DNA of 64,000 bases, from contig JAHCSE010000001.1 of NCBI GenBank assembly GCA_018609195.1, positions 9,559 to 73,558 on the forward strand, in the 5' to 3' direction. The position numbers and the translations under genes were made by a program. The notes beneath the pieces were generated by a model that saw only the letters and a program-made list of their open reading frames with translations, searched no databases and was not told where the DNA came from. Numbering within the stretch: position 1 is the first letter of the stretch; every line of letters starts with the position of its first letter. Of the stretch, positions 46,305 through 61,613 are shown one piece after another. The stretch is from Patescibacteria group bacterium. Lineage in GTDB: Bacteria; Patescibacteriota; Minisyncoccia; Minisyncoccales; RBG-13-36-15.

Positions 46305-47420
46305 TTACCCAAAAGTAAATGTAAAGACCTGAAGTCCTGGTGAGTGAATTATTATTTCTAACGTGTGCCATCCGTACTCCTTCCCCGTATCTACAAGATT
46401 ATAGAGTTTTGATTCTTTGACCTTCGCGAATGACTTCCCCTCTTTAAAAAACGAGTCAGCCCCTTTGTTTTGCTCGGTAAGATATTCTCCATCGAGCTTT
46501 ACTTCAAGCGTAATCTCTGAATTTTCTCGATTTTCGAGCACTACATTTACCTTATTGGCCTTGTAGCGAAGGATGAGTTTTCCTTTCTCATCCACAAATT
46601 CTGCAAATTCAGGGTTAATACTCCAAGTGCCCACAAAATAAAAGCGGTTTCGCGCGATGCGCTCAGGTTCTACAAATGTATGTGGTTCATTCGGGCGAAC
46701 ATTTTTATCTTTATTACCAAGATTATTTATGCGCAAATACCCGAGATATATTTCCGGAGTCCCAATTTTTCGGAACTCAACACCAAGAGGTGCTTCTTTG
46801 ATTTCTGAAATTTTGTCAATCGAGAGAAATCCAGCTTCCAAAAGAAGCTGTTGAATTGCTCGTTCGGTTTCTGCATAACGGCCCTCTCCGAAATGATGGT
46901 AACGAATATTTCCATTAACGTCTATCAAATATTCAGCCGGCCAGTATTGGTTTTGAAAGGCATTCCAGGTTTTGTGATCGTTGTCCAAGGCAACGGGATA
47001 TTCCAGATTATATTTGCGAACTTCTTGTAAAACATTTTCCTTCTTTTTTTCAAAATCAAATTCCGGAGAATGAACGCTTAAAAGAACAAAGCCGCTATCT
47101 TTATATTTTCGATGCCACTCCGAAAGATGCGGAAAGGTACGGATGCAGTTAATGCAGGTGTAGGTCCAAAAATCGACCAAAACTACTTTGCCTCTTAGTT
47201 CCTCGAGGGTCAATGGCTCGGAATTAATCCAATCTTCAATACCTACCAACTCAGGTGCCTTTCTTTCAATGGGCAATTTTTGTAATTGCGGAATGGGCAT
47301 GATTCCTTTGAAAGTAATAAGACCTTTTTTATTTAGATATGAAATAGTACCCGCGATCAAAAGAAGCGCTAAAAGAAATAAAAAAATATACCTCATTGAA
47401 GTAATTTGCTTTGCAAACAA
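46305..47420 (-). CDS. Secreted thioredoxin-fold (TlpA/redoxin-like) protein with a large C-terminal domain
   Basis: 371 aa; VVLVDFWTYTCINCIRTFPHL. Confidence 0.6.
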   Translation of the reverse strand: MFAKQITSMRYIFLFLLALLLIAGTISYLNKKGLITFKGIMPIPQLQKLPIERKAPELVGIEDWINSEPLTLEELRGKVVLVDFWTYTCINCIRTFPHLSEWHRKYKDSGFVLLSVHSPEFDFEKKKENVLQEVRKYNLEYPVALDNDHKTWNAFQNQYWPAEYLIDVNGNIRYHHFGEGRYAETERAIQQLLLEAGFLSIDKISEIKEAPLGVEFRKIGTPEIYLGYLRINNLGNKDKNVRPNEPHTFVEPERIARNRFYFVGTWSINPEFAEFVDEKGKLILRYKANKVNVVLENRENSEITLEVKLDGEYLTEQNKGADSFFKEGKSFAKVKESKLYNLVDTGKEYGWHTLEIIIHSPGLQVFTFTFG

Positions 47421-47429
47421 ATGTGCTTT

Positions 47430-48185
47430 TTAGTTTTCTTGAACCCAATTAAGTTTTGCTATATGCGGAATCCACCCCTCTTTATCGACAGGCATATAGA
47501 TAGCTTCATACGTTTGCCCTGGCTTCAATCTCGGTTTTGGCTTAGGTTCATGATAATAGTAGGGCACCTCCACATCTATATCCGGAAAGCGCCACTTCTG
47601 TAAAAGTGAATAAATACCAGTTACCATTTTCTTGCCATCATTAATCAATAAAAATGATATCCAATAGGGATGCCCCTGCTCTTTTGGCCACGAAAATTCT
47701 GGTTCTTTTTGTTTTGAAATTGAGAGAACATCATTCTTTTGAATTGACGGTAGGGTATCAATTTTACCAAGAACAGTATTAGAGGCGATAATTTTCCTCC
47801 CTTTTCGAGCTCTTATTATGTAATGTGCACGGTCCTTATAATTATCGGTTACAAAGGCATAAAGGGAACCCTCAAACATTGGGAGTAATTTCGCATTAAT
47901 CTTCTTAAACGAATTGTAATTCTTGCAATCTTGATCCTTGCTTAACCTGCATTCCCATAACTCAAAATCTCTCGCTTTCACTGCTGGCCGAAATAGAATA
48001 GTGGTTGGTTCTGATTCACCCTTTTTTAACAAATCTACCTTCCCGCCGTATACACAGGCAAGAATAAATTTTGAACCAAAAAGAATCTTCGCCCGATGCG
48101 CCAAAACAGATTTATACGAAATCCATGCCGCTAACTTAATAAAAGTGCGACCTAAGATATTTTTTGTATCAAAAAGGAAAAACAT
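47430..48185 (-). CDS. Hypothetical protein
   Basis: 251 aa, no recognised motif. Confidence 0.45.
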   Translation of the reverse strand: MFFLFDTKNILGRTFIKLAAWISYKSVLAHRAKILFGSKFILACVYGGKVDLLKKGESEPTTILFRPAVKARDFELWECRLSKDQDCKNYNSFKKINAKLLPMFEGSLYAFVTDNYKDRAHYIIRARKGRKIIASNTVLGKIDTLPSIQKNDVLSISKQKEPEFSWPKEQGHPYWISFLLINDGKKMVTGIYSLLQKWRFPDIDVEVPYYYHEPKPKPRLKPGQTYEAIYMPVDKEGWIPHIAKLNWVQEN

Positions 48186-48202
48186 TAATACGGATCCTTC
48201 TA

Positions 48203-48979
48203 TTACAAATAATCAAGTATCCGCTCGTAGTCTATAAATTGCAAAGCTCTAAACCCCCAGGAAATTAAGAGCACCATCTTATTAGTAAGAAGCAGGATAC
48301 CAAGGAGGATAAGGAATGCGCCTCCGATAATTTCTACCCAGTGTAAATATCGAGTTATTTTTGTAATCGCAGAGGATACTGCTCCAATACCAGCGGCAAT
48401 AAGTAAAAAAGGGATAGCTAACCCCATAGAGAAAACGAAAAGGAGAAAGCCGCCCTGAAAGGCGGTAGAAGAAGTCGAAGCAAGAAAGAGAATTGCACCA
48501 AGAATTGGTCCCACACATGGTGTCCAGCCAGTGGCAAAAGCTGAACCAAGTAGAGCTGAACTCAATGGATTTCCGCGTCTGACTTGAAAAGGGAGTCTTA
48601 CCTTTCGTTCTTTGCTGAGGAATGAGGTAAGAAAAGGAATCCTGAAAATTCCTAACATAGAGAGACCGAAAAGTATGACAAATACGCCGGCAATACGCGT
48701 GAGCCAAATGCGATAAGCGCCAAAGGCTTGCCCTGCAAGACCTGCTAACGTTCCGAAGAGAACAAAAATAACCGTGACTCCCGCCATAAAAAATAGGCCG
48801 TTCAAAAAAATCTTCCTGCGGGCACTTCTTGCTTTTGTAGGATCTCTGAGTTCTTCAGCAGAGGTTCCACTGATAAAACCTAAATAAGCCGGTATAAGAG
48901 GAAGAGTGCAAGGGGCTAAGAACGTAATAATGCCGGCAATAAAAGCCGGGATAATGAGGGCAATTACTTCAGGGGTCAT
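48203..48979 (-). CDS. ccdA: Cytochrome c-type biogenesis / disulfide electron-transfer protein CcdA
   Basis: 258 aa; LAPCTLPLIPAY, TPCVGPIL. Confidence 0.8.
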   Translation of the reverse strand: MTPEVIALIIPAFIAGIITFLAPCTLPLIPAYLGFISGTSAEELRDPTKARSARRKIFLNGLFFMAGVTVIFVLFGTLAGLAGQAFGAYRIWLTRIAGVFVILFGLSMLGIFRIPFLTSFLSKERKVRLPFQVRRGNPLSSALLGSAFATGWTPCVGPILGAILFLASTSSTAFQGGFLLFVFSMGLAIPFLLIAAGIGAVSSAITKITRYLHWVEIIGGAFLILLGILLLTNKMVLLISWGFRALQFIDYERILDYL

Positions 48980-49506
48980 AATGCAAAAAGTTGTTGTACC
49001 TTAGATTTCATCTCATCAAAGGTCATGGGGCCCCGCTTATGGAAGAGGATATTTCCTTCTCCATCAACAAAAATTGTCTCTGGCATAGAAAATCCTCCGA
49101 TTGAGCGATAAAAAGAATCTTTGGGATCGAGGAGGAAAATAAGGGTATCTGTCACACCGAGATCATCTGTATAGCTCTTGGTTAGCTCAAGAGATTCAGC
49201 TCGGTCAATTGGAATAATGGTGATTTTATCTCCAAATTCCTGTTGGAGTTTTGCAAAATCCCCCAGTTCCTTAACGCAGAATGGACACCACACTGCCCAG
49301 GAATTTACAATAATGGATTTGCCTTGGAAATCGGAAAGAGCCACTGTGTTGCCACTATAGTCTTTCAAACTGAAATTGGGCGCTGGCTCAGGTTTTGGGG
49401 GCGTAAGAGTTTGAGTATCCTGTTTCTGACCCCCGCCCGAAACTATAAAAAAGATGATAATGGAGGCAAGAATAATAATTCCCACCACTACAAAGATTTT
49501 ATTCAT
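48976..49506 (-). CDS. TlpA/ResA-like thiol-disulfide oxidoreductase
   Basis: 176 aa; signal anchor; SWAVWCPFC. Confidence 0.75.
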   Translation of the reverse strand: MNKIFVVVGIIILASIIIFFIVSGGGQKQDTQTLTPPKPEPAPNFSLKDYSGNTVALSDFQGKSIIVNSWAVWCPFCVKELGDFAKLQQEFGDKITIIPIDRAESLELTKSYTDDLGVTDTLIFLLDPKDSFYRSIGGFSMPETIFVDGEGNILFHKRGPMTFDEMKSKVQQLFAL

Positions 49507-49562: not shown

Positions 49563-49721
49563 TTATGCACATCCACCGCAGCCCCCTTTTTCTTTATGAG
49601 TATGTCCGCACTTCGAACATTTTTCCTGACGCTCCGCTCCACAGCAGGTCCCAGGGCTTTCAGTAGACTCTGAACCACAGCCGGGACAAATATGTGTTTT
49701 TTCGGTTGTTTCTTCTGCCAT
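49563..49721 (-). CDS. Small Cys-rich metallothionein-like protein (52 aa)
   Basis: Hand-translated MAEETTEKTHICPGCGSESTESPGTCCGAERQEKCSKCGHTHKEKGGCGGCA; not in ORF track. Confidence 0.45.
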   Translation of the reverse strand: MAEETTEKTHICPGCGSESTESPGTCCGAERQEKCSKCGHTHKEKGGCGGCA

Positions 49722-49778: not shown

Positions 49779-50834
49779 TTATTTATACAATTCGGTATCT
49801 GGATAAGCTGCCACCCACGAAAACCAAAAAGCAGAAAAGGGATTGATGCGCTCCTCGCTGCCATCTGGCAATATCTTAAACATCCTGATCACATCAAGTT
49901 CTTTATCAGGCCGCAAGATAATAGTGGTATCTTGAAAAACATCCTCTACAGTGCCTTTTTCTTTTACTGCATCAATGTGGTATGCCTTAGCTTCTCCATT
50001 GATAACAATCCCGAATACAAAAGCATCATTAGGAAGTCGGGTATCAGTAGGTTTGGCAAGGGATAATGCCAAGTTTGTAGTTGAAAAATAATCGCCATAA
50101 GGCTTTGAGCCATAAAAGCGAAGAGCTCCCGTATCTTTGGAAAGAATTTCGCCATCAGGATGTAATTTTTTCCAGTTGCCGTAGCGCATCTGGTCTGAGG
50201 GCAATACTTTGAGTTTTGTTCCTGTCATTTCTCCTACAGCGGCTTCTCCCAAAATTTGCGGCCACAGGCTATCTGTCTTCCTATCATACATCACCAAGTT
50301 TGCCTTCCAGAGTTTTCCTGAGGTTCCAAACTCAACTCTCTCCCCTTTTACCAGAGGATCAAATATATACCCAGTGAGACAGAGAGGACAATAAGTAACA
50401 AGAACGCGTTCTCCCTCCACAATATCATTGACGATTTCATGCCAGACAGTAATCTGATAGGGATAAAAACGGTGAGTGTTTCCTCTCGAAAAAGCAATAC
50501 CTGGCTCTTCATCACTTAACCACTGATTTGCCTCTGTAATAGAAATAAACTTTGGATTATCAATAGAGGGAATGCCGTCTTTGGGCGGACCTCCACTAAT
50601 AATTTCTTCCAAAGGTATACTATGTTTAACTCCATCCGTCACCATAATTTCTTTTTCGGTTACCACAATTTCTTTTTCTCCTTCTTTGGTGATAATTTCC
50701 TCTTCTATGAGAACTTTTTCCTCTCGTGTTTCTCCTTTCGGCAGTTCAAACCTTTCTTTTCCAAATCTTTGGAAAATTAAAAAACCTACTCCTAAAAGAA
50801 TTAAAACTAAAATAGCAATATTAATAATCTTCAT
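49779..50834 (-). CDS. Signal-anchored hypothetical protein (DUF3179-like?)
   Basis: 351 aa; VTYCPLCLTGYIFD. Confidence 0.5.
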   Translation of the reverse strand: MKIINIAILVLILLGVGFLIFQRFGKERFELPKGETREEKVLIEEEIITKEGEKEIVVTEKEIMVTDGVKHSIPLEEIISGGPPKDGIPSIDNPKFISITEANQWLSDEEPGIAFSRGNTHRFYPYQITVWHEIVNDIVEGERVLVTYCPLCLTGYIFDPLVKGERVEFGTSGKLWKANLVMYDRKTDSLWPQILGEAAVGEMTGTKLKVLPSDQMRYGNWKKLHPDGEILSKDTGALRFYGSKPYGDYFSTTNLALSLAKPTDTRLPNDAFVFGIVINGEAKAYHIDAVKEKGTVEDVFQDTTIILRPDKELDVIRMFKILPDGSEERINPFSAFWFSWVAAYPDTELYK

Positions 50835-50844: not shown

Positions 50845-51099
50845 TTACTTTTTAGCCCACTGTTTTACCCTTTCGTAATCAACTTCGCCACAAATGAAAT
50901 CTTCGTTTGCAGTGTTGAAGAAAAATGGTACTCCCATACACCTCCCCTCCGCATATTCTCTCATTTTTTGAGCACTGTCTTTATTATGCCACACTTCGTA
51001 TTTTTCAACTTTTACCCCTTCTTCTTTCTCTAATCTCTCTATCAAAGGGTGCATATTCATACAATGAGGGCATTCTTCCCCGTAAAATTCCAAAAGCAT
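50845..51099 (-). CDS. Glutaredoxin/thioredoxin-like small protein
   Basis: 84 aa; FYGEECPHC. Confidence 0.65.
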   Translation of the reverse strand: MLLEFYGEECPHCMNMHPLIERLEKEEGVKVEKYEVWHNKDSAQKMREYAEGRCMGVPFFFNTANEDFICGEVDYERVKQWAKK

Positions 51100-51188: not shown

Positions 51189-51338
51189 TTAAGCTGCGCA
51201 ACACTCTTTGGCGTACTTACCCGAACCACATCCACAAACCTTTTCTCTTGATGCACCACAACACGTTCCTCCTTCTTCACCCTCGGGAGGTGTACTGCCA
51301 CAGCTTTGGCATTTGTACTGGTCTTTTTCTTCAGCCAT
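51189..51338 (-). CDS. Small Cys-rich metallothionein-like protein (49 aa), paralog of 49563..49721
   Basis: Hand-translated MAEEKDQYKCQSCGSTPPEGEEGGTCCGASREKVCGCGSGKYAKECCAA. Confidence 0.45.
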   Translation of the reverse strand: MAEEKDQYKCQSCGSTPPEGEEGGTCCGASREKVCGCGSGKYAKECCAA

Positions 51339-51465: not shown

Positions 51466-51780
51466 TTATTTTAATAATCCTTTAATTTTTTCAGCAAGGG
51501 AGTAGCAAGCCATTCTCCCAATCTTCACCCTTCTTACCAAACCTGCTCTCTCAAGTAAACTCAATTGATGGGAAACAGCGCTTATACTAATATGTAAAAT
51601 TTGTGAAAAGTCAGTAGGACACAATTTTTTATAGTGTTTGAGCAAAAAAATAATTTTAAGGCGGGTGGGGTCAGAACAAAGATAATAAAAACTGCTTTTT
51701 TCTTTAATTTTTTGAGAAAGTTTTGCTAATTCTCTCTGGGAATTTTTGATTTCTCTTCCCTTAAGAAGCATTAATTGCAT
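51466..51780 (-). CDS. ArsR/SmtB-family metalloregulator
   Basis: 104 aa; DPTRLKIIFLL...ISAVSHQLSLLERAGLV wHTH. Confidence 0.8.
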   Translation of the reverse strand: MQLMLLKGREIKNSQRELAKLSQKIKEKSSFYYLCSDPTRLKIIFLLKHYKKLCPTDFSQILHISISAVSHQLSLLERAGLVRRVKIGRMACYSLAEKIKGLLK

Positions 51781-51941
51781 ATTTGCTCAACTATTTAAAT
51801 ATTATCTGGATAAAAAAACTTGTCAAGTGGTAGGTTGTGGAAAACTCAACCTTAAGAAATAAAAAGCCACTTTAAAACTTGGGGGTTTAAACTTTTGAAT
51901 CAACATGTTTTTGTCTTATTACTCTTTTTCCTTAAGATTAA

Positions 51942-52799
51942 CTACGGCAGAATTTGAAGTAGCCGTTCGCTTAACGTGATTACAATATTAAAGGCACCCA
52001 TAAGGATGAGGAAAAAGCCTCCTAATAACCTGATAGGTTTCATTTGCCTAACCAATGTTTGTGTCAAGGATTCTCTCGCAAATCCAGCTATAACTGAAAG
52101 TGATATCATGAGCAAAGCCATAACAGTACTTGCAAGTATAAAGACAGTTAAAGCAGAGGATAACCCGCCGCCACTCAAGGCAAAAAGAGAAAGTCCACCA
52201 ACTAAGGGAGCTACACAACCTATCCCAGCTAAAGTATATCCAAATCCAAACATAAAAAATTTACCAAACATTCCGCGGCCTCTTTTCGATATTTCAGTGC
52301 CAAGATGTTCCACTTTTCCTAAACTGACGAATACTTTATTGGTTACCAATGCCAACCCAAGTCCTATCAACAAAACACCAATGATTCGTCTAAACCATAG
52401 CAGTGCCGTTGTTCCTGGTTTAATAAAATTAATAAATGTTTCTCCCAAAAGTCCGATGACAATTCCGAAAAGAATCATAAACGCTAAAAGACCTAATGCA
52501 GCATAGAATCCATTACGAATCAGTTTTCCTCGAGAAAGTACTCGCCCTCCCCCACTCACCACCTCTGTTTGATAAACCAAATAAGATGGGAGGATCGGTA
52601 AAACACACGGATTAAAGAAAGCCGCTATCCCGACACCTAAGCCAGCGACAATAAGCGTAACCAAGGATATATCCGATGGTTTCATAAAACTTTTTGTAGC
52701 CGAAAAGAGGTAAAATCCGATAACTGCTATAACAATAAAAAACACTGCTAAGCCGATGTAAAGTAGAACAGGATGAGTTTTTGTCTGAGTATTATTCAT
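51942..52799 (-). CDS. CcdA/DsbD-family membrane protein (paralog)
   Basis: 285 aa; FNPCVLPILPSY, GIGCVAPLVGG. Confidence 0.75.
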   Translation of the reverse strand: MNNTQTKTHPVLLYIGLAVFFIVIAVIGFYLFSATKSFMKPSDISLVTLIVAGLGVGIAAFFNPCVLPILPSYLVYQTEVVSGGGRVLSRGKLIRNGFYAALGLLAFMILFGIVIGLLGETFINFIKPGTTALLWFRRIIGVLLIGLGLALVTNKVFVSLGKVEHLGTEISKRGRGMFGKFFMFGFGYTLAGIGCVAPLVGGLSLFALSGGGLSSALTVFILASTVMALLMISLSVIAGFARESLTQTLVRQMKPIRLLGGFFLILMGAFNIVITLSERLLQILP

Positions 52800-52896: not shown

Positions 52897-53064
52897 TTAT
52901 TGATGCCTGTCCTGTAGGACGTGCTTATTAATTTCGAGATTGCAGCTTTTGTGTTCTCTGCACCAAGCCTCACATTTCTCTGCCCACTCTTCATCTTCAT
53001 ACTTATATCCACATTCCTCGCATTGATATAATTCTTTGTTTTCTTGTTCTATTTTCTTAACCAT
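52897..53064 (-). CDS. Small Cys-rich protein (55 aa), paralog of 57515..57700
   Basis: Hand-translated MVKKIEQENKELYQCEECGYKYEDEEWAEKCEAWCREHKSCNLEINKHVLQDRHQ. Confidence 0.5.
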   Translation of the reverse strand: MVKKIEQENKELYQCEECGYKYEDEEWAEKCEAWCREHKSCNLEINKHVLQDRHQ

Positions 53065-53332
53065 TTTGGGGAGATAATTCTTTTAATTTTTCTACTAACT
53101 TATTTTTATCAAGCCCTCCAACTGCAAAAAGCTCTCCATTAACGACAATACCAGGCGAAACCATAATACCGTATTCCTGAACCATTTTCTGGCCTTGTTC
53201 AGAAAACATATCAATGTATTCAATTTCCGCATCTGGAAATTGGGGTTTAATTTCTTCTTCTAAAGTTTTCTTTGCCGTGGCACAGTGACTACACCCTGGT
53301 GTTGAAAGTTCTTGAATTTTTATCTTATTCAT
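53057..53332 (-). CDS. Thioredoxin/glutaredoxin-like protein
   Basis: 91 aa; STPGCSHCATAK. Confidence 0.65.
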   Translation of the reverse strand: MNKIKIQELSTPGCSHCATAKKTLEEEIKPQFPDAEIEYIDMFSEQGQKMVQEYGIMVSPGIVVNGELFAVGGLDKNKLVEKLKELSPQNG

Positions 53333-53882: not shown

Positions 53883-53905
53883 AGAGGTTTAATAATAGTG
53901 TAAGT

Positions 53906-54200
53906 CTACTACATCCCCCAAATAAAAAATATAGTAAACATCCACATGCTTGTTAAAACTAATATTCCGCCTGCAACCTTTTTCATTGTTTCTGTTTTTC
54001 CAATCATTGTTTTGAAAAAAGTGTGCTTACCCTGTCCGATAAATACGGTAACTGCAATAAGAAATAGGGCTTGAAATTTAAAAACCCGCAGCTCGTTCCA
54101 TGACTTCAGCCACTTGTTCTTTTGTAATGTTTTTTGCTATTTTGATTACACTTTCGCAGCAGGTGCAATCTTTTATATGGATTATAGTTAGCGTTGTCAT
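53906..54200 (-). pseudogene. Gene remnant: ~170-nt duplicate of the 3' end of the CcdA-like gene 55387..56214, plus a 40-codon HMA-like ORF
   Basis: 53906..54075 about 93% identical to 55387..55560 with a 26-nt deletion; upstream ORF MTTLTIIHIKDCTCCESVIKIAK... Confidence 0.55.
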
Positions 54201-54235: not shown

Positions 54236-55357
54236 TTACCTTACTGAAGTATATTCTCCGAGCAGACCTTTTTTCGATAATACTATCTGCCATTGCTGGG
54301 CTTTTCGAGCCCGGAAGGATCCTGCAGCCGAGAGAAGATAGTATTTCCACATTCGATAAAATCTATCCCCATATTTAGTGCGCAATTCATTCCAGTGCGA
54401 ATTAAAGTTGTCCCACCAGTGCATAAGAGTCGTATCGTAGTGAGTACCAAAGCTATGCCAGTCCTCAAGAACAAACAGCCCTTCCGCTGCCTTTGCGATC
54501 TGTTTGTATGACGGAAGCATTGTATTCGGAAAAATATATTTCAAATACCACGGATCCAATCCAATTGAGGACGTACTAACACCTCCTGCGTCTAAGAGAA
54601 AAAGTCCATCATCGCTAAGCATGGAGTGAACCTTTTCCATGTAGAGTCGGTAATTTTTGTATCCGACATGCTCAAACATCCCTAACGAAACAATATGGTC
54701 AAACGTTCCATCAATATCACGATAATCCTGTAGACGAGTTTCTGTCGGCAAATCACCGCGCTGTGCGTTCGCATAGTCCGCCTGCTCTTTCGACACCGTA
54801 ATCCCTACACATTGAGCCCCGTAGCGCTCAGCAGCAAAGTTGATAAAGCTGCCCCACCCTGAGCCAATATCGAGAATTCGATCGCCTTTTTGTATTCCAA
54901 GTTTCCTGCACGTAAGGTCGAGTTTTAATTCCTGTGCCTCGTCAAGTGTTTGCGCATTCTTCCAGTACCCACATGTGTAGGTCAGTCGTTTGTCGAGCAT
55001 TGCCTTAAATAAGTCATTGCCAATGTCATAGTGATCTTCTCCAACCTGAAACGCGCGCAAACGCGGCATGTTGATGAGCTTTGCCTTGAGATAATTCCAT
55101 ACCAATACTGGATTTATGCGTGCCTGTTTTTCAAGTCTCGAGCGAAGAACTTTGTTAAAAAATTCATCAAGCTCTTTCACGTCCCACCAGCCGTCCATAT
55201 ACGACTCACCAAGCCCGAGAGAGCCCTGGCTTAGGACACGACCGTAGAATTTCTCGTTGTGCACTTGAATATCCCATGGTCGATCGCCATTGATTGTAAT
55301 ACCTGCCTCCGAAGCTAATTGTTCAATAACTACTTTAGGTGTAAACGGCATATTCAA
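54236..55357 (-). CDS. Cyclopropane-fatty-acyl-phospholipid synthase family SAM methyltransferase
   Basis: 373 aa; ILDIGSGWGSF SAM motif; noticeably higher GC than neighbours. Confidence 0.85.
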   Translation of the reverse strand: MNMPFTPKVVIEQLASEAGITINGDRPWDIQVHNEKFYGRVLSQGSLGLGESYMDGWWDVKELDEFFNKVLRSRLEKQARINPVLVWNYLKAKLINMPRLRAFQVGEDHYDIGNDLFKAMLDKRLTYTCGYWKNAQTLDEAQELKLDLTCRKLGIQKGDRILDIGSGWGSFINFAAERYGAQCVGITVSKEQADYANAQRGDLPTETRLQDYRDIDGTFDHIVSLGMFEHVGYKNYRLYMEKVHSMLSDDGLFLLDAGGVSTSSIGLDPWYLKYIFPNTMLPSYKQIAKAAEGLFVLEDWHSFGTHYDTTLMHWWDNFNSHWNELRTKYGDRFYRMWKYYLLSAAGSFRARKAQQWQIVLSKKGLLGEYTSVR

Positions 55358-55386
55358 TTATTTTTCTACAAACGTTAGAAAGATTA

Positions 55387-56214
55387 CTACATTCCCCATA
55401 TAAAGAATATAGCAAACATCCACATACTTGTTAAGACTAATATTCCGCCTGCGACCTTTTTCATTGTTTCTGTTTTTCCAATCATTGTTTTGAAAAACGT
55501 GTGCTTTCCCTGCCCGATAAATACGGTAACTGCAATAAGAAATAATGCTTGAGCAAGACTAAAAATCAGAAAGCTTGAAATACTGACTAAAAATTCTCCA
55601 CCCACAAGAGGGAAGAATACCAATGGTAAAAAGATGGGCAAGAAACACATCAATCCTCCAGCCCCATATACAATGCCAAAGCCAAAAAGATTAACGCTTT
55701 GTGAACGCCCACGACTCATTTTATTAACTTTATCTCTGAAGGAAGAAAGAAAATTAATATTGATAGATTTGCCACGCAAAAAAGCAATGCCGATAAACAA
55801 AATGAGAATTGCAACGGCAAATTTCAATTGGCTAGCATAGGAAGCCAGAAATGTCCCGATAGTCGCAAAAAGTAAACCAAGGACAATAAAGAAGCTGAAT
55901 ACACCGAGTGAGGCAATAATGCCAAGCTTGATACTTCTTTTAATTGGCGAGTGTTTTTCTTCTCCCTCGTCCATTCCAAGATAAAAAGACATATAAGCCG
56001 GAAGCACTCCTAAGGAACAGGGTCCAAAATTCACAATAAGCCCGGCAATGAAAGCAAAGCCCAAAATACCAAGCGTGCTAAAGGCAGCAAGATTGCTTGT
56101 CTGGGGAATAATAATCCCATACAGAACTTTCCAGCCAAAGATACTGGCAACCACAAAAATAGTAAGTGCTGCCAATATCCAAATGCTATAAGTTACTATT
56201 TTTGACTTAATCAT
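55387..56214 (-). CDS. CcdA/DsbD-family membrane protein (start at internal MIKSK; ORF extends to 56286)
   Basis: NFGPCSLGVLPAY, GGLMCFLPIF. Confidence 0.7.
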   Translation of the reverse strand: MIKSKIVTYSIWILAALTIFVVASIFGWKVLYGIIIPQTSNLAAFSTLGILGFAFIAGLIVNFGPCSLGVLPAYMSFYLGMDEGEEKHSPIKRSIKLGIIASLGVFSFFIVLGLLFATIGTFLASYASQLKFAVAILILFIGIAFLRGKSININFLSSFRDKVNKMSRGRSQSVNLFGFGIVYGAGGLMCFLPIFLPLVFFPLVGGEFLVSISSFLIFSLAQALFLIAVTVFIGQGKHTFFKTMIGKTETMKKVAGGILVLTSMWMFAIFFIWGM

Positions 56215-56218: not shown

Positions 56219-57076
56219 TTAAGGAAAAAGAATTTTTGTAAATGGAGTGATGAAAACAGAAGAAAGAATAAGGAAAATTCCGACAATAAGAAGTAGAACG
56301 CCGCTTACTCTTTTGATAGCAACGGTTGATTGGCGAAGACTTTGGAGTAAAGTTTCTTTGGAAAAAGCAATGAGCAGTGATACAACAATCATCAGAAGTG
56401 CCATTACTAATGAATAAACCACAAAAGCCAGAAACGCATCTGAGAAGCCACCTTGAGATAGTGCAAATACAATGAGCCCACCCATGATTGGGCCTCCACA
56501 ACCGATACCAAGTAGTGGATAGCCAAAACCATAGCCATAGAGTTTTCCAAATCCCGCTTGTTTTTCTTCCGGCAATGATTTCGGATGCCATAAATGCCCT
56601 AATCTCCCAAAAGGATTCCCTCTCCCTGTGGCGTGGCTAAAACCAAGATACAGAAGAAACACTCCTACAATGCCACGCAGCCATCTTACTGGTATGCTTG
56701 GGTTTTCTCCTGCAAGCCCTAATGATTTCCCAAAACCAGCTCCTAAAATACCAATGCCAATACCGAGTAAAAGATTAAAGGTGATAAGACCTAATGCTGC
56801 TGCTAATCCAGAGAGGAGTAGTTTCGTTGCTGACTTTTTACTTTCACCTTCTTTTGTTGTGTAGTATTGAGCAAAGTAGGCAGGAAGCAATGGAAAAGCA
56901 CAAGGGTTAAAGAAACTTGCCACTCCTGCAACTACCGCAACAAATAGTAACCCAAAAGCAGCACCTCCCTTCATTATGTTGATAACAAACCAGATAAATA
57001 ACCCATACCCGCCTGCTACCAAAACAAAAATAATAAAAAAAAGAAAAATGAGCTTGCTCCAATCTTTTAACGACAT
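56219..57076 (-). CDS. CcdA/DsbD-family membrane protein (paralog of 51942..52799)
   Basis: 285 aa; FNPCAFPLLPAY, GIGCGGPIMGG. Confidence 0.75.
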   Translation of the reverse strand: MSLKDWSKLIFLFFIIFVLVAGGYGLFIWFVINIMKGGAAFGLLFVAVVAGVASFFNPCAFPLLPAYFAQYYTTKEGESKKSATKLLLSGLAAALGLITFNLLLGIGIGILGAGFGKSLGLAGENPSIPVRWLRGIVGVFLLYLGFSHATGRGNPFGRLGHLWHPKSLPEEKQAGFGKLYGYGFGYPLLGIGCGGPIMGGLIVFALSQGGFSDAFLAFVVYSLVMALLMIVVSLLIAFSKETLLQSLRQSTVAIKRVSGVLLLIVGIFLILSSVFITPFTKILFP

Positions 57077-57369
57077 AGCTTTTTGCAGAATTTGTTAATA
57101 TGCTTATCCATTAACCCAAGAAGCGGCTTTGTTGTTTCTTTGTTTAGAGTATAAATGCGTTCTTTTCCATTTCTTTCCATGCTTACAAAACCACATTTTT
57201 GAAGCCGTCCTAAGTGATGCGAGACAAGACTTTGCTCATAGCCAAGTTTCTTGGCAATAGCAGTTACATTTAGCTTTCCTTTTCGAAGCAAATGGATAAT
57301 ATCCCACCTTGTTTTATTCCCCAGGGTTTCAAAAAAGATTTTATATGGTTCGCGAATAATTCTCTTCAT
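57067..57369 (-). CDS. ArsR/SmtB-family regulator
   Basis: 100 aa; wHTH IAKKLGYEQSLVSHHLGRLQKCGFV. Confidence 0.8.
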   Translation of the reverse strand: MKRIIREPYKIFFETLGNKTRWDIIHLLRKGKLNVTAIAKKLGYEQSLVSHHLGRLQKCGFVSMERNGKERIYTLNKETTKPLLGLMDKHINKFCKKLCR

Positions 57370-57453
57370 AGTATGAATTATATTTCATATGAAACTTATG
57401 TCAAGTGTATTTTTCCACAAGAGTTCTCATTGTTTTGTTTTGTATAGAGATAT

Positions 57454-57514: not shown

Positions 57515-57700
57515 TTAGCTCTCTGACTTCTCAAGGAAAGCAGGTTCTTTCACAGCGTGCTCGGTAATCTCAAGGTTACAGCTTTTGTGTTCCAAGCACC
57601 AAGCCTCGCATTTCTCTGCCCACTCTTTTTCTCTATAAGTAAAACCGCACTCTCTGCACTGGTAATACGTTTTATTGTTTTGAGTAATAACTTTTGGCAT
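57515..57700 (-). CDS. Small Cys-rich protein (61 aa)
   Basis: YYQCRECGFTYREKEWAEKCEAWCLEHKSCNLEI; paralog of 52897..53064. Confidence 0.5.
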   Translation of the reverse strand: MPKVITQNNKTYYQCRECGFTYREKEWAEKCEAWCLEHKSCNLEITEHAVKEPAFLEKSES

Positions 57701-57729: not shown

Positions 57730-58107
57730 TTATTCATTACTTCTTCTCCAAAATCTAAAATTTTCTGGCCAGGCACTAATCGCTAAAGCCAAGGCTGCAG
57801 TAAATAATCCAATATCGCGAACTGTAATTGTATTAATACCAGAGACTGTAAGAACGGTGACTAAGTGCAAAGCTCCAAGAAGTGCTGCTAACCAAGTGAA
57901 GTAATCTATTAAAAGCAAAGCACCAATAATAATATCAAAAAGGGCTGTTCCAATCATTACTCCTTTTAAGGAGATTGGTAAAAGATTAGCTGCCCAGGGT
58001 TGCACGTAGCCTCCCCACCCTACTGGGTCCCGTAAAATGAGAATGCCAATCCACAAGAAAGTAATGGCCATTCCCACTCGTAATATGTGAAATGCACTTG
58101 ATTTCAT
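57730..58107 (-). CDS. DoxX-family membrane protein
   Basis: 125 aa, 4 TM. Confidence 0.55.
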   Translation of the reverse strand: MKSSAFHILRVGMAITFLWIGILILRDPVGWGGYVQPWAANLLPISLKGVMIGTALFDIIIGALLLIDYFTWLAALLGALHLVTVLTVSGINTITVRDIGLFTAALALAISAWPENFRFWRRSNE

Positions 58108-58175: not shown

Positions 58176-58589
58176 TCAAATTATAAGCTCGCTAATTAAT
58201 ACAATAAGTCCCATAGCAAAAACGGTAAAGGCAGACAGTACACACCAAAAACACCAAGCTTTGATAACCCGCCATTGAAGATAGGTCAAAATGATTGATA
58301 TAACTACTCCAGCTCCAATAAGAATCTTTACCAACATATCCCAAAAGATCAGTGGTTCAACCCCAATTATCAAAAAAGCAGTGAAAAGGGAAATTAAAAC
58401 ATAAAATGTAAATCCCAAAACTTCATTATGAATACCAATAATTTTATTGTACTTACTTCCCAAGACTTCATAGCACTCCTCGCCGAAAATACAGACAGGT
58501 TCCTCTTTTGCTATTCTTTTACGAATTAAATAAACTGTCTCTGAAATACCTATGGCGGCGAGTGTGAAAAGAAGGGCATGTGGAGTCAT
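58176..58589 (-). CDS. Vitamin K epoxide reductase (VKOR)-family membrane oxidoreductase
   Basis: 137 aa; loop Cys pair CIFGEEC and TM active site CFWC. Confidence 0.7.
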   Translation of the reverse strand: MTPHALLFTLAAIGISETVYLIRKRIAKEEPVCIFGEECYEVLGSKYNKIIGIHNEVLGFTFYVLISLFTAFLIIGVEPLIFWDMLVKILIGAGVVISIILTYLQWRVIKAWCFWCVLSAFTVFAMGLIVLISELII

Positions 58590-58917: not shown

Positions 58918-59703
58918 CTATTTTTCATTTCCCTCGTTCTTGTTCTCTTCTGGTAATTTTTTGCCAAATCTTTCAAAGGCTCTAAGAATTTCCAAAGGCA
59001 CAGCAAAAATAATCGTATTTGATTTATCAGAGCTTATATCATTGATTGATTGAAGAGTTCTTAAATGAAGGGCTCCCTTAGCCTCAGATAGAGTCCGGGC
59101 AGCTTTTGCCAGATTACCGGAGGCAATTACTTCTCCTGCGGCCTTAATAATTATTGCTCTTTTTTCCCTTTCTGCTTCAGCTTGCTTTCCAATTACCCTC
59201 TTCATTCCTTCTGGTAAAGTTATATCTTTTAATTCCACATTGAGAACTTTAATTCCCCAAGGATCGGTAGCCTTATCTATAATGCTTCTTATGTTTTCTG
59301 AAACCCTGTCTCTTTGAGAAAGGAGGCCATCTAAATCTACTTGACCTACGGCATTTCGCATTGTTGTTTGGGCTAACTGAGAAATGGCAAAGAAAAAATC
59401 CTCTACTTCCAAAACTGCCTTATCAGCTTCTTGGACTTTATAATAGATAACAGCATTAACCCTAACTGAGATATTATCCTTGGTAATTGCCTCCTGATCT
59501 GGTACATCTACCGCCTTTACTCTTAAATCTATTTTTCGATAAAACTGAACAATAGGCAAAACTATTCTCCAGCCAGGTTCCATCAAACCGATATACTTAC
59601 CCAGCATAAACTTAACTCCCTTTTGATACTGATTAATCTGCTTAATGGAGGTTAAAATAATCAAGACAATTATTGCTAAAATTACCCAACCTATATTTGG
59701 CAT
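58918..59703 (-). CDS. SPFH/band-7 (stomatin/prohibitin-like) protein
   Basis: 261 aa; N-terminal TM then SPFH core. Confidence 0.8.
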   Translation of the reverse strand: MPNIGWVILAIIVLIILTSIKQINQYQKGVKFMLGKYIGLMEPGWRIVLPIVQFYRKIDLRVKAVDVPDQEAITKDNISVRVNAVIYYKVQEADKAVLEVEDFFFAISQLAQTTMRNAVGQVDLDGLLSQRDRVSENIRSIIDKATDPWGIKVLNVELKDITLPEGMKRVIGKQAEAEREKRAIIIKAAGEVIASGNLAKAARTLSEAKGALHLRTLQSINDISSDKSNTIIFAVPLEILRAFERFGKKLPEENKNEGNEK

Positions 59704-59723: not shown

Positions 59724-60359
59724 TTATTCGACCTTTAAGGAACCCAGCATTCCATTGGCGCGGTGACCAGGGATAGCACAATAATACTCAAAGGTACCTA
59801 GCTTATCGGGTATGAAAGAGACAGTTTTCGATCCAGTACCATAGTAACCACCAGATAGTGAGTAGTTAACTCCTAGTTCATCGATAGTAAAAGTATGGGT
59901 GCCAGAGATGGAAAAGTTAATCTTAAGTTCTTGTCCTTTTTGAACCGTTGCTGAATTTGGAATAAACGCAAAGTTGCGTGCCGTCATTGAAATCTCTTTA
60001 GTTGGAAGTGGCTCAGGAGTAGGTTCAGGTTCAGGGGTTGGCTCAGGCTCTGGAGTAGGTTCTTGCATAGGTTCAGGTTCAGACTCTGGTTCTGGGGTTG
60101 GTTCGGGTGTAATCATCTGTTCTTCTGTCAGTGCTGGAGCGATTGCCTCTTCTTCATCTGGGAGAGACACCTCCTCGGGTGGACTAGGAATTTGTTCTCC
60201 TGGGGCGACTTTTTCTGGTGCTAGAGGCCCGGTTGGAGTTGGAGTTGGGGCTTGATAACCTCCTTTTAAAATAAAATATCCACCCACAATGACTGCAAAC
60301 GCCACCGCTGCAATAATAATACCCCACGTTACTTTATCCATATATTCCCTACCTTTCAA
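59724..60359 (-). CDS. Membrane-anchored cupredoxin with a Pro/Glu/Thr-rich repeat linker
   Basis: YYCAIPGHRANGMLG copper site; linker (PEPT/PEPE) repeats. Confidence 0.7.
   Translation of the reverse strand: MKGREYMDKVTWGIIIAAVAFAVIVGGYFILKGGYQAPTPTPTGPLAPEKVAPGEQIPSPPEEVSLPDEEEAIAPALTEEQMITPEPTPEPESEPEPMQEPTPEPEPTPEPEPTPEPLPTKEISMTARNFAFIPNSATVQKGQELKINFSISGTHTFTIDELGVNYSLSGGYYGTGSKTVSFIPDKLGTFEYYCAIPGHRANGMLGSLKVE
59728..59739 (-). promoter_or_regulatory. AAAGGTCGAA motif (site 8), ~27 nt upstream of the SPFH gene
   Basis: TTCGACCTTTAA. Confidence 0.4.
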
Positions 60360-60891
60360 TAAATTCTTTTATTTTATCTTCATCAAAACCATCTAAAATT
60401 TCTCTTTTGTTAAGCTTGGTTAAGATAATTTTCCCATCATAATTATTGGGAGCTAAATAAACATTGTCTGGGTATTGTTTTACTAAAGCTGTGATCTTTT
60501 CTATTAAACCTAATTTACACTTAAACTTATCACAGTTGTATTGAATGATAACTCCTGGTTTGCCTCTGCCATCGGCATGCTCTAACATGTGTTTTTGGAT
60601 GACTTCTGGTATAGGTTGCGAAAGAATGTGAGCTGGGGGTATTGCTTCTGAATGATTAAGGAGTGTCGTTGGAGGTAAATCAGGACTGCTGGTTAAAAAC
60701 CATCCTAAACCAAAAATTCCTCCTCCTATCACCAAGACAATTAAGCTTAAATTTAGTGTCTTTTTAAATCGCAGTCTCCGTCTTCCCCCCTCTTGTTCTT
60801 TTTGTCTAAGTTTTCTTTTGAGAAGTCGACGCTCTTTTTTTGTCAGTTGTTGATCCTCAACGAGAACCTTGTTTTTCTCTAATTCCTCCAT
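60349..60891 (-). CDS. Membrane-anchored hypothetical protein (DUF3105-like?)
   Basis: 180 aa; HMLEHADGRGKPGVIIQY. Confidence 0.45.
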   Translation of the reverse strand: MEELEKNKVLVEDQQLTKKERRLLKRKLRQKEQEGGRRRLRFKKTLNLSLIVLVIGGGIFGLGWFLTSSPDLPPTTLLNHSEAIPPAHILSQPIPEVIQKHMLEHADGRGKPGVIIQYNCDKFKCKLGLIEKITALVKQYPDNVYLAPNNYDGKIILTKLNKREILDGFDEDKIKEFIER

Positions 60892-60917
60892 TTTCCTTTA
60901 AGTAAAACCGGATCCTT

Positions 60918-61613
60918 TTATTTCAGATCAGCCAATGCCTGATCTACTGCGGCCTTGAAGGTTGAGTAAGGAACTGCTCCAGGAATGGATCGCCCATTTA
61001 CAAAACTTCCCGGAGTCCCTCTTACTCCTGTCTTTATCCCCTCTTGATAATCAGCGGCTACCTTATCTTTGTATTTTCTGGAAGAAAAACAACTATTAAA
61101 CTGATCTATATTAAGCCCGAGATTTCCTGCTAATTCTTGATAAAGTGCTTTTCCCAATCTGGATTGATTTTCAAATGCGCCATCTACAAACTGCCAAAAT
61201 CCATCATTTCCCGTTTGTTCCCAGACGCACTCGGATGCTTCAGCTGCAGGGGTTGCCTGAGGATGAATTTGGTCTAAAGGAAAGTGCTTGTACACCCAAC
61301 GGACTTGACCGGAATACTCTGCCAAAATCTGCTTCAGAGTGGGATGAAGTCTATCGCAAAATGGACACTCAAGATCAGAATATTCAACAATAGTTACGGG
61401 GGCCTCAAAATCTCCTCGGATATGATCTTTCTCGGAAATAGTAAGCGTTCCTCCTGGACTTCCTTTTTGAGACTCTGTTTGAGAAATATCAGCCTGCGAT
61501 TTTTGAGTTAATCCAGTGGATTGTTGAGGGCTTTTTGTATAAATCAAAGCTCCAACAATCAGTAAAGCACCTACAATTATTGAGACTGGTAAATATAATT
61601 TTTCTCCTCTCAT
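60918..61613 (-). CDS. DsbA-family thiol:disulfide oxidoreductase
   Basis: 231 aa; signal anchor; SDLECPFCDRLH. Confidence 0.75.
   Translation of the reverse strand: MRGEKLYLPVSIIVGALLIVGALIYTKSPQQSTGLTQKSQADISQTESQKGSPGGTLTISEKDHIRGDFEAPVTIVEYSDLECPFCDRLHPTLKQILAEYSGQVRWVYKHFPLDQIHPQATPAAEASECVWEQTGNDGFWQFVDGAFENQSRLGKALYQELAGNLGLNIDQFNSCFSSRKYKDKVAADYQEGIKTGVRGTPGSFVNGRSIPGAVPYSTFKAAVDQALADLK

Follow-up and report, generated by a model that had tools for sequence, protein, structure and literature searches.

CcdA and DsbD proteins are the textbook electron conduits of cytochrome c maturation and disulfide isomerisation, and two systems that contain relatives of them, ScsB/ScsC and cutA-dipZ(dsbD), serve in copper tolerance. 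On the mercury side, ArsR-type mer regulators are known in Streptomyces, and archaeal and ArsR-type mer operons have been reported without MerT or MerP (PMC3466566). A 2025 review also lists proteins with CcdA and TrxA domains as annotated 'mercury transporters' (PMC12195606). Here we describe a gene cluster of a Patescibacteria group bacterium in which CcdA-like proteins stand beside ArsR repressors. The cluster lies at 46305-61613 of a 64,000-nucleotide stretch of contig JAHCSE010000001.1 (the whole stretch is called the window below), where it comprises 25 open reading frames (ORFs), 25 of 25 on the minus strand, with transcription running from high to low coordinates. It encodes four CcdA/DsbD-type proteins, with a fifth at 22846-23895 on the plus strand, as had been proposed in an original prediction made from the DNA letters alone. 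The exceptional density of thiol-redox and metal genes claimed there is borne out as well: members of Pfam thiol-redox or metal families make up 14 of 28 cluster genes and 3 of 66 genes in the rest of the window (Fisher p = 9e-7, a test that predates our finding of a peroxiredoxin at 35916-36494; the corrected rest-of-window count is 4/66 and p was not recomputed), and sub-modules of the cluster recur in other phyla.

Every part of the cluster comes from a known superfamily, and reductive Dsb-type modules in metal-resistance loci are already known. What is unusual is that a genome of roughly the 1-Mb class, with no evident cytochromes, carries five CcdA paralogs, and that there is a small divergent CcdA subfamily whose links to ArsR2, MerA, HMA, zinc-ribbon and MerC-like proteins are conserved across bacteria of the candidate phyla radiation (CPR) and DPANN archaea. 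We think that the cluster most likely serves chromosomally encoded envelope-thiol and soft-metal homeostasis, arranged in three co-directional blocks. To a more specific reading, in which metal-derepressed CcdA relays keep surface metal-binding cysteines reduced beside an oxidising Dsb system, we give a probability of about 55%.

The CcdA proteins, the ArsR repressors and the relatives

The original prediction depended on the CcdA-like proteins keeping two conserved cysteines, and on alignment they do. Each of the five copies has exactly two Cys residues, one in a P-C pair of the first core helix and one in a C-x-x-P motif of the fourth; in CcdA1 numbering these are P23-C24 and C155-x-x-P158, without variation among the five, and the pattern holds in 17 family members. 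Membership in the CcdA family is clear by sequence for the canonical CcdA1 (48203-48979; DsbD_TM 77 bits, 1.4e-21; PDB 5VKV, E 1.2e-27) and for the isolated, canonical-type CcdA5 (DsbD PRK00293, 2.6e-12), which has two extra C-terminal transmembrane helices (TMs) and a His/Glu-rich tail; for the other three copies it holds at the profile level only. CcdA2 (51942-52799) matches nothing in Pfam or NCBIfam, CcdA3 (55387-56214) reaches 25.4 bits against DsbD_TM, under the gathering cutoff of 27.1, and CcdA4 (56219-57076), a 7-TM protein with the motifs FFNPC and GIGCGGP in which both Cys are conserved, reaches E 1.4e-3. These three are 24-27% identical to CcdA1, carry an extra N-terminal TM (hydropathy, 7-8 helices), do not reach the Pfam gathering score and match nothing in NCBIfam. 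A profile of the CcdA2/CcdA4 family nevertheless aligns over its full length with the CcdA of 5VKV, both Cys in register (E 1.2e-5, 230 columns). An AF2 model of CcdA2, of moderate quality (pLDDT 68, pTM 0.62), has 5VKV as its top Foldseek match and as the sole one with probability 1.0, with TM-scores of only 0.37/0.44, which is weak evidence for the fold. Searched exhaustively with the profile of the divergent family, 1.84 billion representative proteins gave 205 at E<=1e-30 and 1,859 at E<=1e-10. CcdA2, CcdA3 and CcdA4 form a small divergent subfamily that escapes standard models.

A neighbour-joining tree of 70 sequences resolves the five copies into four or five deep subfamilies with distinct neighbours. 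CcdA1 groups with plasmid-borne CcdA proteins of Actinobacteria and Roseobacters, and CcdA5 is a deep sister in the same canonical clade. The other clades are that of CcdA3, a TlpA-paired clade that includes the actinobacterial mer-linked CcdA, a CcdA2 clade made up of the window copy and one Saccharibacteria sequence, and a large CcdA4 clade. By this tree, the five copies are deep, old paralogs of two kinds. The earlier suggestion of several reductive pathways in place of one Dsb system agrees with what is present: an oxidising DsbA/VKOR block and several separate CcdA-based units. Arsenical efflux of the ArsG type was considered and rejected, as the only match of the NCBIfam ArsG model is CcdA1, whose 51 bits fall short of the cutoff of 200, and ars genes occur in no locus. 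A tblastn comparison of CcdA4 with plasmids gave no match.

Using the family alignment to scan genome and metagenome collections, we obtained 72 loci, which belong to Patescibacteria, DPANN archaea (Aenigmarchaeota, Woesearchaeota, Nanoarchaeota, Micrarchaeota), Thermoplasmata, Hadesarchaea and Bipolaricaulota. Within 4 kb of 39 CcdA4-type genes we counted an ArsR2 orthologue in 19 cases, MerA in 11, small Cys-bearing membrane proteins in 15 and a P1B ATPase in 3, and TlpA is adjacent in 15 of 33 distant loci. Five MerAs by CcdA4-type genes (loci L007, L008, L010, L011 and L014) score 492-584 bits, above the TIGR02053 equivalog cutoff of 454, and phmmer found three further full-length ones (L047, L051, L055). 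The C-terminal CC pair is present in all eight full-length MerAs and the TCVNVGC(V/M)PSK site in seven of them (N-terminal scan). Seven are 467-501 aa long, a length that implies the lack of an N-terminal HMA domain; the eighth (L055) has 575 aa.

Gene order in individual relatives ties these proteins together. The closest relative of CcdA4, 85% identical, stands at the end of an ArsR-MerA-(Cys membrane protein)-TlpA-CcdA operon of another Patescibacteria metagenome-assembled genome (L007). A Woesearchaeota locus (L010) reads ArsR-MerA-TlpA-(CxxC membrane protein)-CcdA4-DUF7128, and a Thermoplasmata locus (L014) has MerA-Trx, a divergent ArsR and then soluble HMA-CcdA4. The set ArsR2-Trx_3-CcdA3-HMA-CcdA4 of a Nanoarchaeota locus (L013) is the same as in the window, L060 reads CcdA3-HMA-Trx_3-CcdA4, and in the CcdA3 clade, to which L013 and L060 belong, the gene always lies beside HMA and Thioredoxin_3 (Trx_3) genes. 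Fusions repeat the same associations: six join a TlpA/redoxin domain to a CcdA-like one (P0202, P0210, P0218, P0223, P0232, P0239), and others are HMA::CcdA-like, zinc-ribbon::CcdA-like (P0168) and MerC-like::CcdA-like (P0204), the MerC similarity in relatives being weak (E 3.5e-3 and 4.8e-5, below threshold).

We also observed several families of small membrane proteins without a Pfam match directly beside MerA and/or CcdA4-type genes, with motifs such as GTAACASC, GACPACIP and GICGCLSC (L007 8763-9284; L010 9412-9840; L008 383-925 and 4391-4774; L035 1251-1859; L049 1789-3461; L005 8165-8602; L009 983-1426). Only one has a weak MerC similarity (E 3.5e-3). They are candidates for new Hg(II)-handling membrane proteins.

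The repressor that heads the divergent set, ArsR2 (57067-57369; HTH_5 1.8e-12), is of the ArsR/SmtB family and carries a triad of Cys59 and Cys95-x3-Cys99 that is kept in most of 20 orthologues (Cys59 in 100%, 20/20; Cys95 in 95%; Cys99 in 90%). Cys59 sits at the end of the recognition helix (L-x-x-C-G-F-V), at the position of one CmtR ligand, and the winged-helix ArsR domain has PDB matches to NmtR, HlyU, SmtB, CzrA and CadC. The ArsR2 promoter/operator (57374-57404, minus strand) consists of TTGACA-16-TATAAT (57404-57377; 12/12 promoter match) with two palindromes, TTTCATATGAAA (57394-57383) and TGAAATATAATTCA (57387-57374), over the spacer and the -10 element. TGAAATATAATTCA is a TGAA-N6-TTCA palindrome that covers the -10 element, and TGAA-N6-TTCA is kept upstream of ArsR2 orthologues in six bacterial loci (L035, L039, L040, L049, L050, L062). 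The 12-bp TTTCATATGAAA is not significant alone, with three matches (<=1 mismatch) against one expected; conservation lies with the TGAA-N6-TTCA that overlaps it. As the -10 hexamer is followed by the ArsR2 ATG after 7 nt, the transcript probably has no leader or hardly any. At archaeal ArsR2-CcdA4 loci (promoters of L005, L009, L012, L047, L052 and L054), a TTTAAATA box followed by a ATATGACA-N4-TGTCATAT palindrome is found ~60 nt upstream of the ArsR2 orthologues, and the start codons of the module are a few nucleotides from the expected transcription start. Judged by these motifs, the ArsR2-CcdA4 module carries domain-appropriate promoters in both CPR bacteria and DPANN archaea. Because a bacterial sigma-70 promoter is found in the one and an archaeal box in the other, this suggests an inter-domain transfer of the module in which the promoter was rebuilt.

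The second repressor, ArsR1 (51466-51826; HTH_5 1.2e-12), is 35% identical to ArsR2 and has its own promoter (51826-51798). Its three Cys are at positions other than those of ArsR2, with a single Cys where ArsR has CVC. The spacer of its promoter holds the palindrome TTATCCAGATAA (51802-51813), TTATC-N2-GATAA, which is unique in the window and known from this single instance only.

The genes between the two repressors run in the order ArsR2, CcdA4, CcdA3, cyclopropane-fatty-acid (CFA) synthase, HMA protein, Thioredoxin_3-like protein, DUF7128a, CcdA2, ArsR1. The HMA protein (53325-53882; HMA 6.1e-7, 30 bits), with the motif MFCLGC and an extra C-terminal domain, is anchored by one N-terminal TM, as are its orthologues in L013 and L060, and is probably exofacial. 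The Thioredoxin_3/glutaredoxin-like protein (53057-53332; Thioredoxin_3 6.4e-10; CSHC) has no TM; it is a cytoplasmic candidate electron donor, and its gene shares an operon with CcdA3/CcdA4 in L013 and L060. The two paralogous small Cys proteins that had been noticed earlier can now be identified as DUF7128 proteins, each cytoplasmic, with five Cys and zinc-ribbon-like: DUF7128a (52897-53064; DUF7128 4.2e-5) and DUF7128b (57515-57700; E 4e-4), the latter followed by a terminator-like hairpin at 57476-57458. They are 73% identical over 127 nt, and DUF7128 genes adjoin CcdA4-type genes in L010, L049 and L073. The earlier picture of a repeated Cys protein-ArsR-CcdA module survives as regards its parts, which are common to both copies, and fails as regards their order, which is DUF7128b, ArsR2-CcdA4 in one and DUF7128a-CcdA2-ArsR1 in the other. 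The CFA synthase (54236-55357; CMAS 2.4e-80) is flanked by 173-nt direct repeats of 92% identity (53902-54074 and 55380-55552), by which the 3' end of CcdA3 is present on either side of it, and CcdA3 and HMA genes are directly adjacent in L013 and L060; for both reasons we regard the synthase as a later insertion. On this comparison the ancestral unit is ArsR2-CcdA4-CcdA3-HMA-Trx_3-DUF7128-CcdA2.

Downstream of ArsR1 lies a metallothionein-like ORF of 49 aa with eight Cys (51189-51338), a paralog of a 52-aa, 8-Cys ORF at 49563-49721 that has one near-identical homologue in 5.8 billion proteins. The two peptides are 46% identical over 37 aa, start with MAEE and have in common the motifs C-x2-C-G-S, G-T-C-C-G-A and C-x(1-2)-C; their paralogy speaks for real genes. 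Assignment to known metallothioneins was rejected, given the lack of a Pfam family match and the one homologue of the 52-aa ORF. The prediction had placed each of two such ORFs beside an ArsR gene; there are indeed two, and only the 49-aa one adjoins ArsR.

A proposed reductive relay and the explanations that compete with it

From gene content, conserved Cys, homology, topology prediction, promoter and operator conservation, and neighbourhood and fusion statistics, all of them observed or computed, we infer an inducer, a relay direction, donor-acceptor pairings and a physiological role as follows. In Block I (61.6-57.7 kb), DsbA and VKOR would form disulfides outside the cell. In Block II (57.7-51.2 kb), ArsR2 on its TGAA-N6-TTCA operator would leave the DNA upon binding a thiophilic metal (Hg(II)-like, possibly Cu(I), Cd or Pb), and its release, possibly with that of ArsR1, would switch on CcdA4, CcdA3 and CcdA2 together with their cysteine partners. 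The Cys pair of TM1 and TM4 would then pass reducing equivalents from cytoplasmic Trx_3/Grx-like donors to the outside, in the manner of every CcdA/DsbD protein characterised so far. CcdA proteins had been called electron-import pores; they are thiol-disulfide relays that export reducing power. The exported reductant may keep the CxxC of the anchored HMA protein and other surface Cys as free thiols despite DsbA/VKOR, so that these thiols could bind or buffer metal, and metal-induced mis-oxidation could be repaired. Acceptors of the relay would be the HMA protein in the window and TlpA and MerC-like proteins in relatives, with the DUF7128 zinc ribbons and the ArsR1-linked 8-Cys peptides as cytoplasmic metal-binding accessories. 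In Block III (51.1-46.0 kb), TlpA-CcdA1 and a DipZ-type TlpA-Thioredoxin_10 protein would form a canonical reducing pathway, and G6PD and 6-phosphogluconate dehydrogenase, encoded directly downstream, could supply NADPH. The predicted topology places DsbA, the cupredoxin, the HMA protein, the DUF3179 protein and both TlpA proteins outside the cell, and Trx_3, the Grx-like protein, DUF7128, the Cys-rich peptides and the ArsR proteins in the cytoplasm.

We favour an electron relay because of the TlpA fusions, the Trx_3 co-operons and the copper-tolerance precedent of DsbD-family proteins, which includes, beside ScsB/ScsC and cutA-dipZ, two metal-resistance plasmids among our loci, one encoding ArsR, a zinc-finger protein, a P-type ATPase, CcdA, TlpA and VKOR (L029) and the other CueR, CopA, CcdA, TlpA and SCO (L030). 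The link to metal is drawn from the ArsR-MerA operons of relatives, their P1B ATPase neighbours, the HMA, zinc-ribbon and MerC-like fusions and the mer locus of Pseudarthrobacter pMK-1. Metal detoxification, one of the roles offered by the original prediction, is accordingly supported by the MerA and P1B loci of relatives and by the ArsR2 triad and operator, but since the window has neither MerA nor a metal ATPase, detoxification is for the window itself a matter of inference.

A number of points weigh against our reading. Neither phmmer nor Pfam analysis of the remaining large ORFs found a MerA homologue among the window ORFs, and a P1B ATPase, a MerC/MerT-like protein and a thioredoxin reductase were not found in the window, so the metal role rests on the relatives. 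Several close CcdA4 orthologues, including those of L004 and L032, have no informative neighbours, and a CcdA4 sub-clade (L037 5190-8708, L041 5208-8696) follows an IscS-like cysteine desulfurase, DsrE_2 and TusA, which points to sulfur trafficking, not metal. DUF7128 occurs elsewhere in mixed company: on three long contigs, one copy is with a YgaP-like TM protein and a P1B ATPase and two are in unrelated contexts. The 8-Cys peptides are orphans, essentially without homologues beyond the lineage. We know of no CcdA that reduces a partner outside the thioredoxin fold, such as HMA, and in the searchable literature on CcdA with mer, Patescibacteria or disulfide we found one table of annotations and no functional study of the divergent subfamily. 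Finally, the soluble, signal-less HMA proteins of L014 and L072 and the N-terminal cytoplasmic HMA and zinc-ribbon fusions are difficult to account for as electron acceptors; a transfer of metal on the inner side of the membrane suits them better.

That last point leads to the strongest competitor, in which CcdA2, CcdA3 and CcdA4 move the thiophilic ion itself, Hg(II) and perhaps Cu(I), and not electrons. An outer anchored HMA, TlpA or MerC-like protein would deliver the ion to the TM1/TM4 Cys pair by ligand exchange, and soluble HMA, DUF7128, Trx_3 and the 8-Cys peptides would accept it in the cytoplasm, followed by MerA where present, which would make the whole a functional analogue of MerP-MerT-NmerA. 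Such a relay would explain why a cytoplasmic HMA is fused to or encoded directly upstream of CcdA4-type genes (P0026, P0182, L014, L072) and why the adjacent MerAs of 467-501 aa lack an N-terminal HMA domain, and it gives every window partner a role, DUF7128 and the 8-Cys peptides included. The 'mercury transporter' annotation of the actinobacterial relatives (PMC12195606) and the mer operons without MerT/MerP mentioned above (PMC3466566) also speak for it. Yet no experiment sets a precedent for it, a MerC-like or other Cys-rich membrane protein that could be the transporter is already present in many loci and in the P0204 fusion, the TlpA fusions point to classical electron transfer, and import of Hg(II) without MerA, as in the window, would harm the cell; we consider it possible and clearly less probable than reductant export. 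We are a little more doubtful still of the wider form of this idea, that the mercury and soft-metal systems under ArsR control in archaea, Patescibacteria and Actinobacteria have their missing membrane translocators in proteins of the CcdA2/3/4 type, and that the module was exchanged between DPANN and CPR lineages with its promoter rebuilt. It is also conceivable that metal has no part in the matter. The ArsR family includes Cys-based sensors of signals other than metals, and if the two repressors were thiol or persulfide sensors of the BigR/SqrR type, the CcdA relays would handle oxidative, polysulfide or persulfide stress or the isomerisation of secreted proteins, and the metal genes of relatives would be incidental companions in stress islands. 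The series IscS, DsrE_2, TusA, CcdA4 in L037 and L041 fits this account, as do the Ni-SOD, peroxiredoxin and pentose-phosphate genes nearby in the window. We hold it to be unlikely, because MerA, P1B ATPases, HMA proteins and MerC-like fusions recur in independent lineages, and because ArsR2 has its invariant Cys at the CmtR-type alpha-4 position and a C-terminal CxxxC, not Cys at the BigR/SqrR positions (an assignment by alignment).

Two further explanations seem very improbable to us. One is that the CcdA copies serve System II cytochrome c maturation, or redundantly fill spore- or cytochrome-type roles. CcdA-TlpA is the canonical pair for haem-site reduction in Bacillus, and one actinobacterial plasmid carries ResB a few kilobases from CcdA, but ResB/CcsBA was not found in the window, the sole CxxCH among the ORFs of the 64-kb window belongs to a cytoplasmic GalT/HIT-family protein (1102-2208), and to our knowledge Patescibacteria generally lack respiratory cytochromes. 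With no CxxCH apocytochrome and no ResB/CcsBA, we reject cytochrome c maturation for the window, a check that the original prediction had itself named. The other is that unrelated Cys-rich genes have come together by chance in a gene-dense, single-strand genome. It is true that co-orientation says little where nearly all window genes are on one strand, and that at least four promoters, one terminator-like site and the inserted CFA synthase gene split the region. Against this stand the Fisher p of 9e-7 and the recurrence across phyla and in both domains of ArsR2-CcdA4, CcdA3-HMA-Trx_3-CcdA4, DUF3179-TlpA-CcdA1 and CcdA1-TlpA_Trx10, and we regard chance clustering as largely refuted by this conserved synteny.

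If the divergent subfamily does support soft-metal defence, a generic redox relay would have been re-purposed. The subfamily is also a candidate for the missing transport or binding part of archaeal and ArsR-regulated mer operons (PMC3466566). For ultra-small cells with exposed disulfide-bonded surface proteins, the cluster might represent a balance between an oxidising Dsb system and metal stress. The pieces open to direct test are all encoded by short genes; they are an ArsR repressor whose operator is defined, a two-Cys relay protein and small partners.

Other genes of the cluster and the window

Block I comprises, in order of transcription, DsbA, a 180-aa protein, a cupredoxin, an SPFH protein, a 71-aa protein, VKOR and a DoxX-like protein; DUF7128b comes next, in Block II. 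The DsbA-like oxidase (60918-61613; Thioredoxin_4 4.6e-30, DSBA 8.6e-20) has its CPFC motif at residues 83-86 and one TM as an N-terminal membrane anchor. The membrane-anchored 180-aa protein (60349-60891) resembles DUF3105 weakly (E 0.017, below threshold), and its homologues adjoin CcdA3-like or TlpA genes in L021, L025, L066 and L074. The cupredoxin (59724-60359; Cupredoxin_1 1.3e-6, Copper-bind 6.4e-5) is membrane-anchored with a Pro/Glu-rich linker, and it is followed by the SPFH/Band-7 protein (58918-59703; Band_7 8e-35). The 71-aa protein, encoded between SPFH and VKOR, has two TM helices and no Pfam or NCBIfam match. The VKOR homologue (58176-58589; Pfam VKOR 1.9e-21; four TMs) has the loop cysteines Cys33/Cys39 and a CFWC at 113-116, and we presume that it re-oxidises DsbA. 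VKOR normally hands its electrons to quinone, and we know of no quinone synthesis in the host lineage. The DoxX-like 4-TM protein (57730-58107) scores 22.2 bits against a cutoff of 23.6, which leaves the earlier DoxX assignment sub-threshold; a DoxX-like gene precedes the mer operon of L007 and another adjoins the cupredoxin of L078.

Block III follows ArsR1 and the 49-aa peptide of Block II in the order 84-aa Trx/Grx-like protein, DUF3179 protein, 52-aa peptide, TlpA/redoxin, CcdA1, 251-aa protein and TlpA plus Thioredoxin_10. The 84-aa protein (50845-51099; Thioredoxin 1.8e-5; CPHC, no TM) is thioredoxin/glutaredoxin-like and cytoplasmic, and the DUF3179 protein (49779-50834; DUF3179 1.8e-80) is membrane-anchored with a CPLC motif. 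The gene for the TlpA/redoxin (48976-49506; Redoxin 5.3e-18; WCPFC, TM anchor) overlaps that of CcdA1 by 4 nt. Beyond a 251-aa protein without Pfam or NCBIfam match (47430-48185) comes the membrane-anchored, 371-aa protein with a TlpA domain and a C-terminal Thioredoxin_10 (46305-47420; Thioredoxin_10 1.2e-30, AhpC-TSA 1.6e-13). The DipZ domain set (CcdA + TlpA + Thioredoxin_10) is therewith complete but split over two genes, 48203-48979 and 46305-47420. The order DUF3179-TlpA-CcdA1 is kept in L008, beside a P1B (CopA-type) ATPase and a cupredoxin, and the pair of CcdA1 and TlpA-Thioredoxin_10 in L022. The CcdA1/TlpA/DipZ-type branch probably serves the DUF3179 protein, a candidate client by virtue of its CPLC, as well as general clients.

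The items listed in the original prediction were about 80% right. The HMA protein, the SPFH protein, both ArsR repressors and two CxxC glutaredoxin-like proteins (those with CPHC and CSHC) were all found. VKOR and DsbA are both present too, although the two genes are not a pair in the strict sense, being 2.3 kb apart with five genes between. Of three TlpA/redoxins expected in the range, two are there, the peroxiredoxin being outside. Likewise, the second cupredoxin, which is fused to DUF7282, is at 39500-40279, and the CutA gene (62338-62775, minus strand; CutA1 1.7e-17) is located just upstream of the cluster, as is a small kinase-like gene. The word 'island' is apt for a gene cluster that is real, and not for a mobile element: GC content is ordinary, there is no integrase and no flanking tRNA, and the window includes a ribosomal operon, on which grounds we rejected a mobile island. 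The window has a low GC (~37%) with genes almost all on the minus strand, and a ribosomal-protein/SecY/EF-Tu/EF-G region at 5-20 kb marks it as chromosomal. Within the cluster region, divided by the promoters and terminator-like site already mentioned, Rfam found no regulatory RNA.

Several genes around the cluster have related functions. Directly downstream (42417-46287, minus strand) are an 86-aa, 4-Cys ORF, G6PD (G6PD_C 2.3e-89), a PGI-like protein (PGI 4.5e-21) and 6-phosphogluconate dehydrogenase (NAD_binding_2 1.1e-46); the 86-aa ORF overlaps G6PD by 4 nt, and its product has no match in Pfam or NCBIfam. NADPH-generating pentose-phosphate genes also flank the mer-type cluster of Woesearchaeota L010 (12007-13592). 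After 6-phosphogluconate dehydrogenase, still within 40378-46287, come a LOG/SLOG protein, an Mrr_cat/AF1548-like protein and RpiB. Locus L078, from an uncultured bacterium (GCA_030649195.1, 116-6882), encodes zf-CDGSH, a cupredoxin, DoxX, an NrdD fragment, LOG, Mrr_cat/AF1548-like, two unknown proteins, DUF7128, a YgaP-like TM protein and a P1B ATPase with two HMA domains; LOG, Mrr_cat, cupredoxin, DoxX and DUF7128 are neighbours common to it and the window. The peroxiredoxin (AhpC/TSA, 8e-40) and a nickel superoxide dismutase (Ni-SOD; Sod_Ni, 8e-42) lie within 35916-37435, and together with the second cupredoxin they extend the redox neighbourhood past 46305-61613. Farther on, an AdoCbl-II (cobalamin) riboswitch (35713-35827, minus strand; 39.1 bits against a gathering score of 36.5) precedes a run of genes, among them one for a B12-type ribonucleotide reductase (31250-33553). 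CcdA5 is alone on the plus strand, directly after the sole tRNA of the window (tRNA-Pro GGG; region 22698-23895), and a CcdA5-like domain occurs elsewhere in a 750-aa protein (L003 96-2348) upstream of a P1B ATPase and a CopZ-like HMA protein.

Comparison with known systems

A mercury-related counterpart is the CcdA and TlpA pair of actinobacterial mer loci such as Pseudarthrobacter pMK-1. That CcdA matches CcdA3, the closest of the window proteins (E 2e-20), as well as CcdA4 and CcdA2, and not CcdA1 or CcdA5; it has no Pfam DsbD_TM match, and it is paired with TlpA near merA/merB. It differs in belonging to another clade of the tree and in standing under a MerR-type regulator, and the window has no merA/merB. 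We found no experiment on this pair in the searchable literature, and its function rests on annotation. MerP-MerT(-MerC)-MerA of Tn21/Tn501 likewise has paired Cys on an outer HMA protein, a membrane protein and a cytoplasmic acceptor, and the operons of our relatives hold true MerA and weakly MerC-like proteins, whereas the window lacks MerT, MerC, MerA and MerR, its membrane part is CcdA-like and its regulator is of the ArsR type. The mer operon of pMAB23 was set aside as a comparator, since it uses MerT/MerH and not CcdA.

Among metal sensors, CmtR (alpha-4C) resembles ArsR2 in combining a Cys at the end of the recognition helix, invariant in ArsR2, with C-terminal cysteines, though the predicted ligand set of ArsR2 is Cys59 + CxxxC and that of CmtR Cys57/61/102. 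The TGAA-N6-TTCA palindrome is like the operators of SmtB and CzrA. ArsR1 followed by a Cys-rich peptide recalls SmtB-SmtA, except that the Cys-rich peptides have no homology to known metallothioneins. On the oxidising side, the VKOR-DsbA systems of Actinobacteria and Cyanobacteria have the same VKOR loop Cys pair and CxxC and the same DsbA CPFC, but in the window the two genes are separated by others, including the cupredoxin gene. CcdA1 and the TlpA-Thioredoxin_10 protein together give the domain set of M. tuberculosis DipZ, here in separate genes with the 251-aa protein between.

Set against CcdA/DsbD-beta itself (B. subtilis CcdA-ResA/StoA; 5VKV), CcdA1 and CcdA5 are ordinary members, and CcdA2, CcdA3 and CcdA4 keep P-C and C-x-x-P and probably the helix layout, with thioredoxin-like donors and TlpA-like acceptors encoded alongside. 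What sets these three apart is their proposed control by ArsR, their partnership with HMA, zinc-ribbon and MerC-like proteins and their extra N-terminal TM, in a window without cytochrome c. With ScsB/ScsC and cutA-dipZ the cluster has in common a DsbD-family exporter of reductant and a periplasmic thioredoxin-like protein, employed there for metal tolerance, and even the CutA gene by the cluster has its counterpart there. Those systems, however, use canonical DsbD/CcdA proteins with one relay each, whereas the window encodes five relays, three of them divergent.

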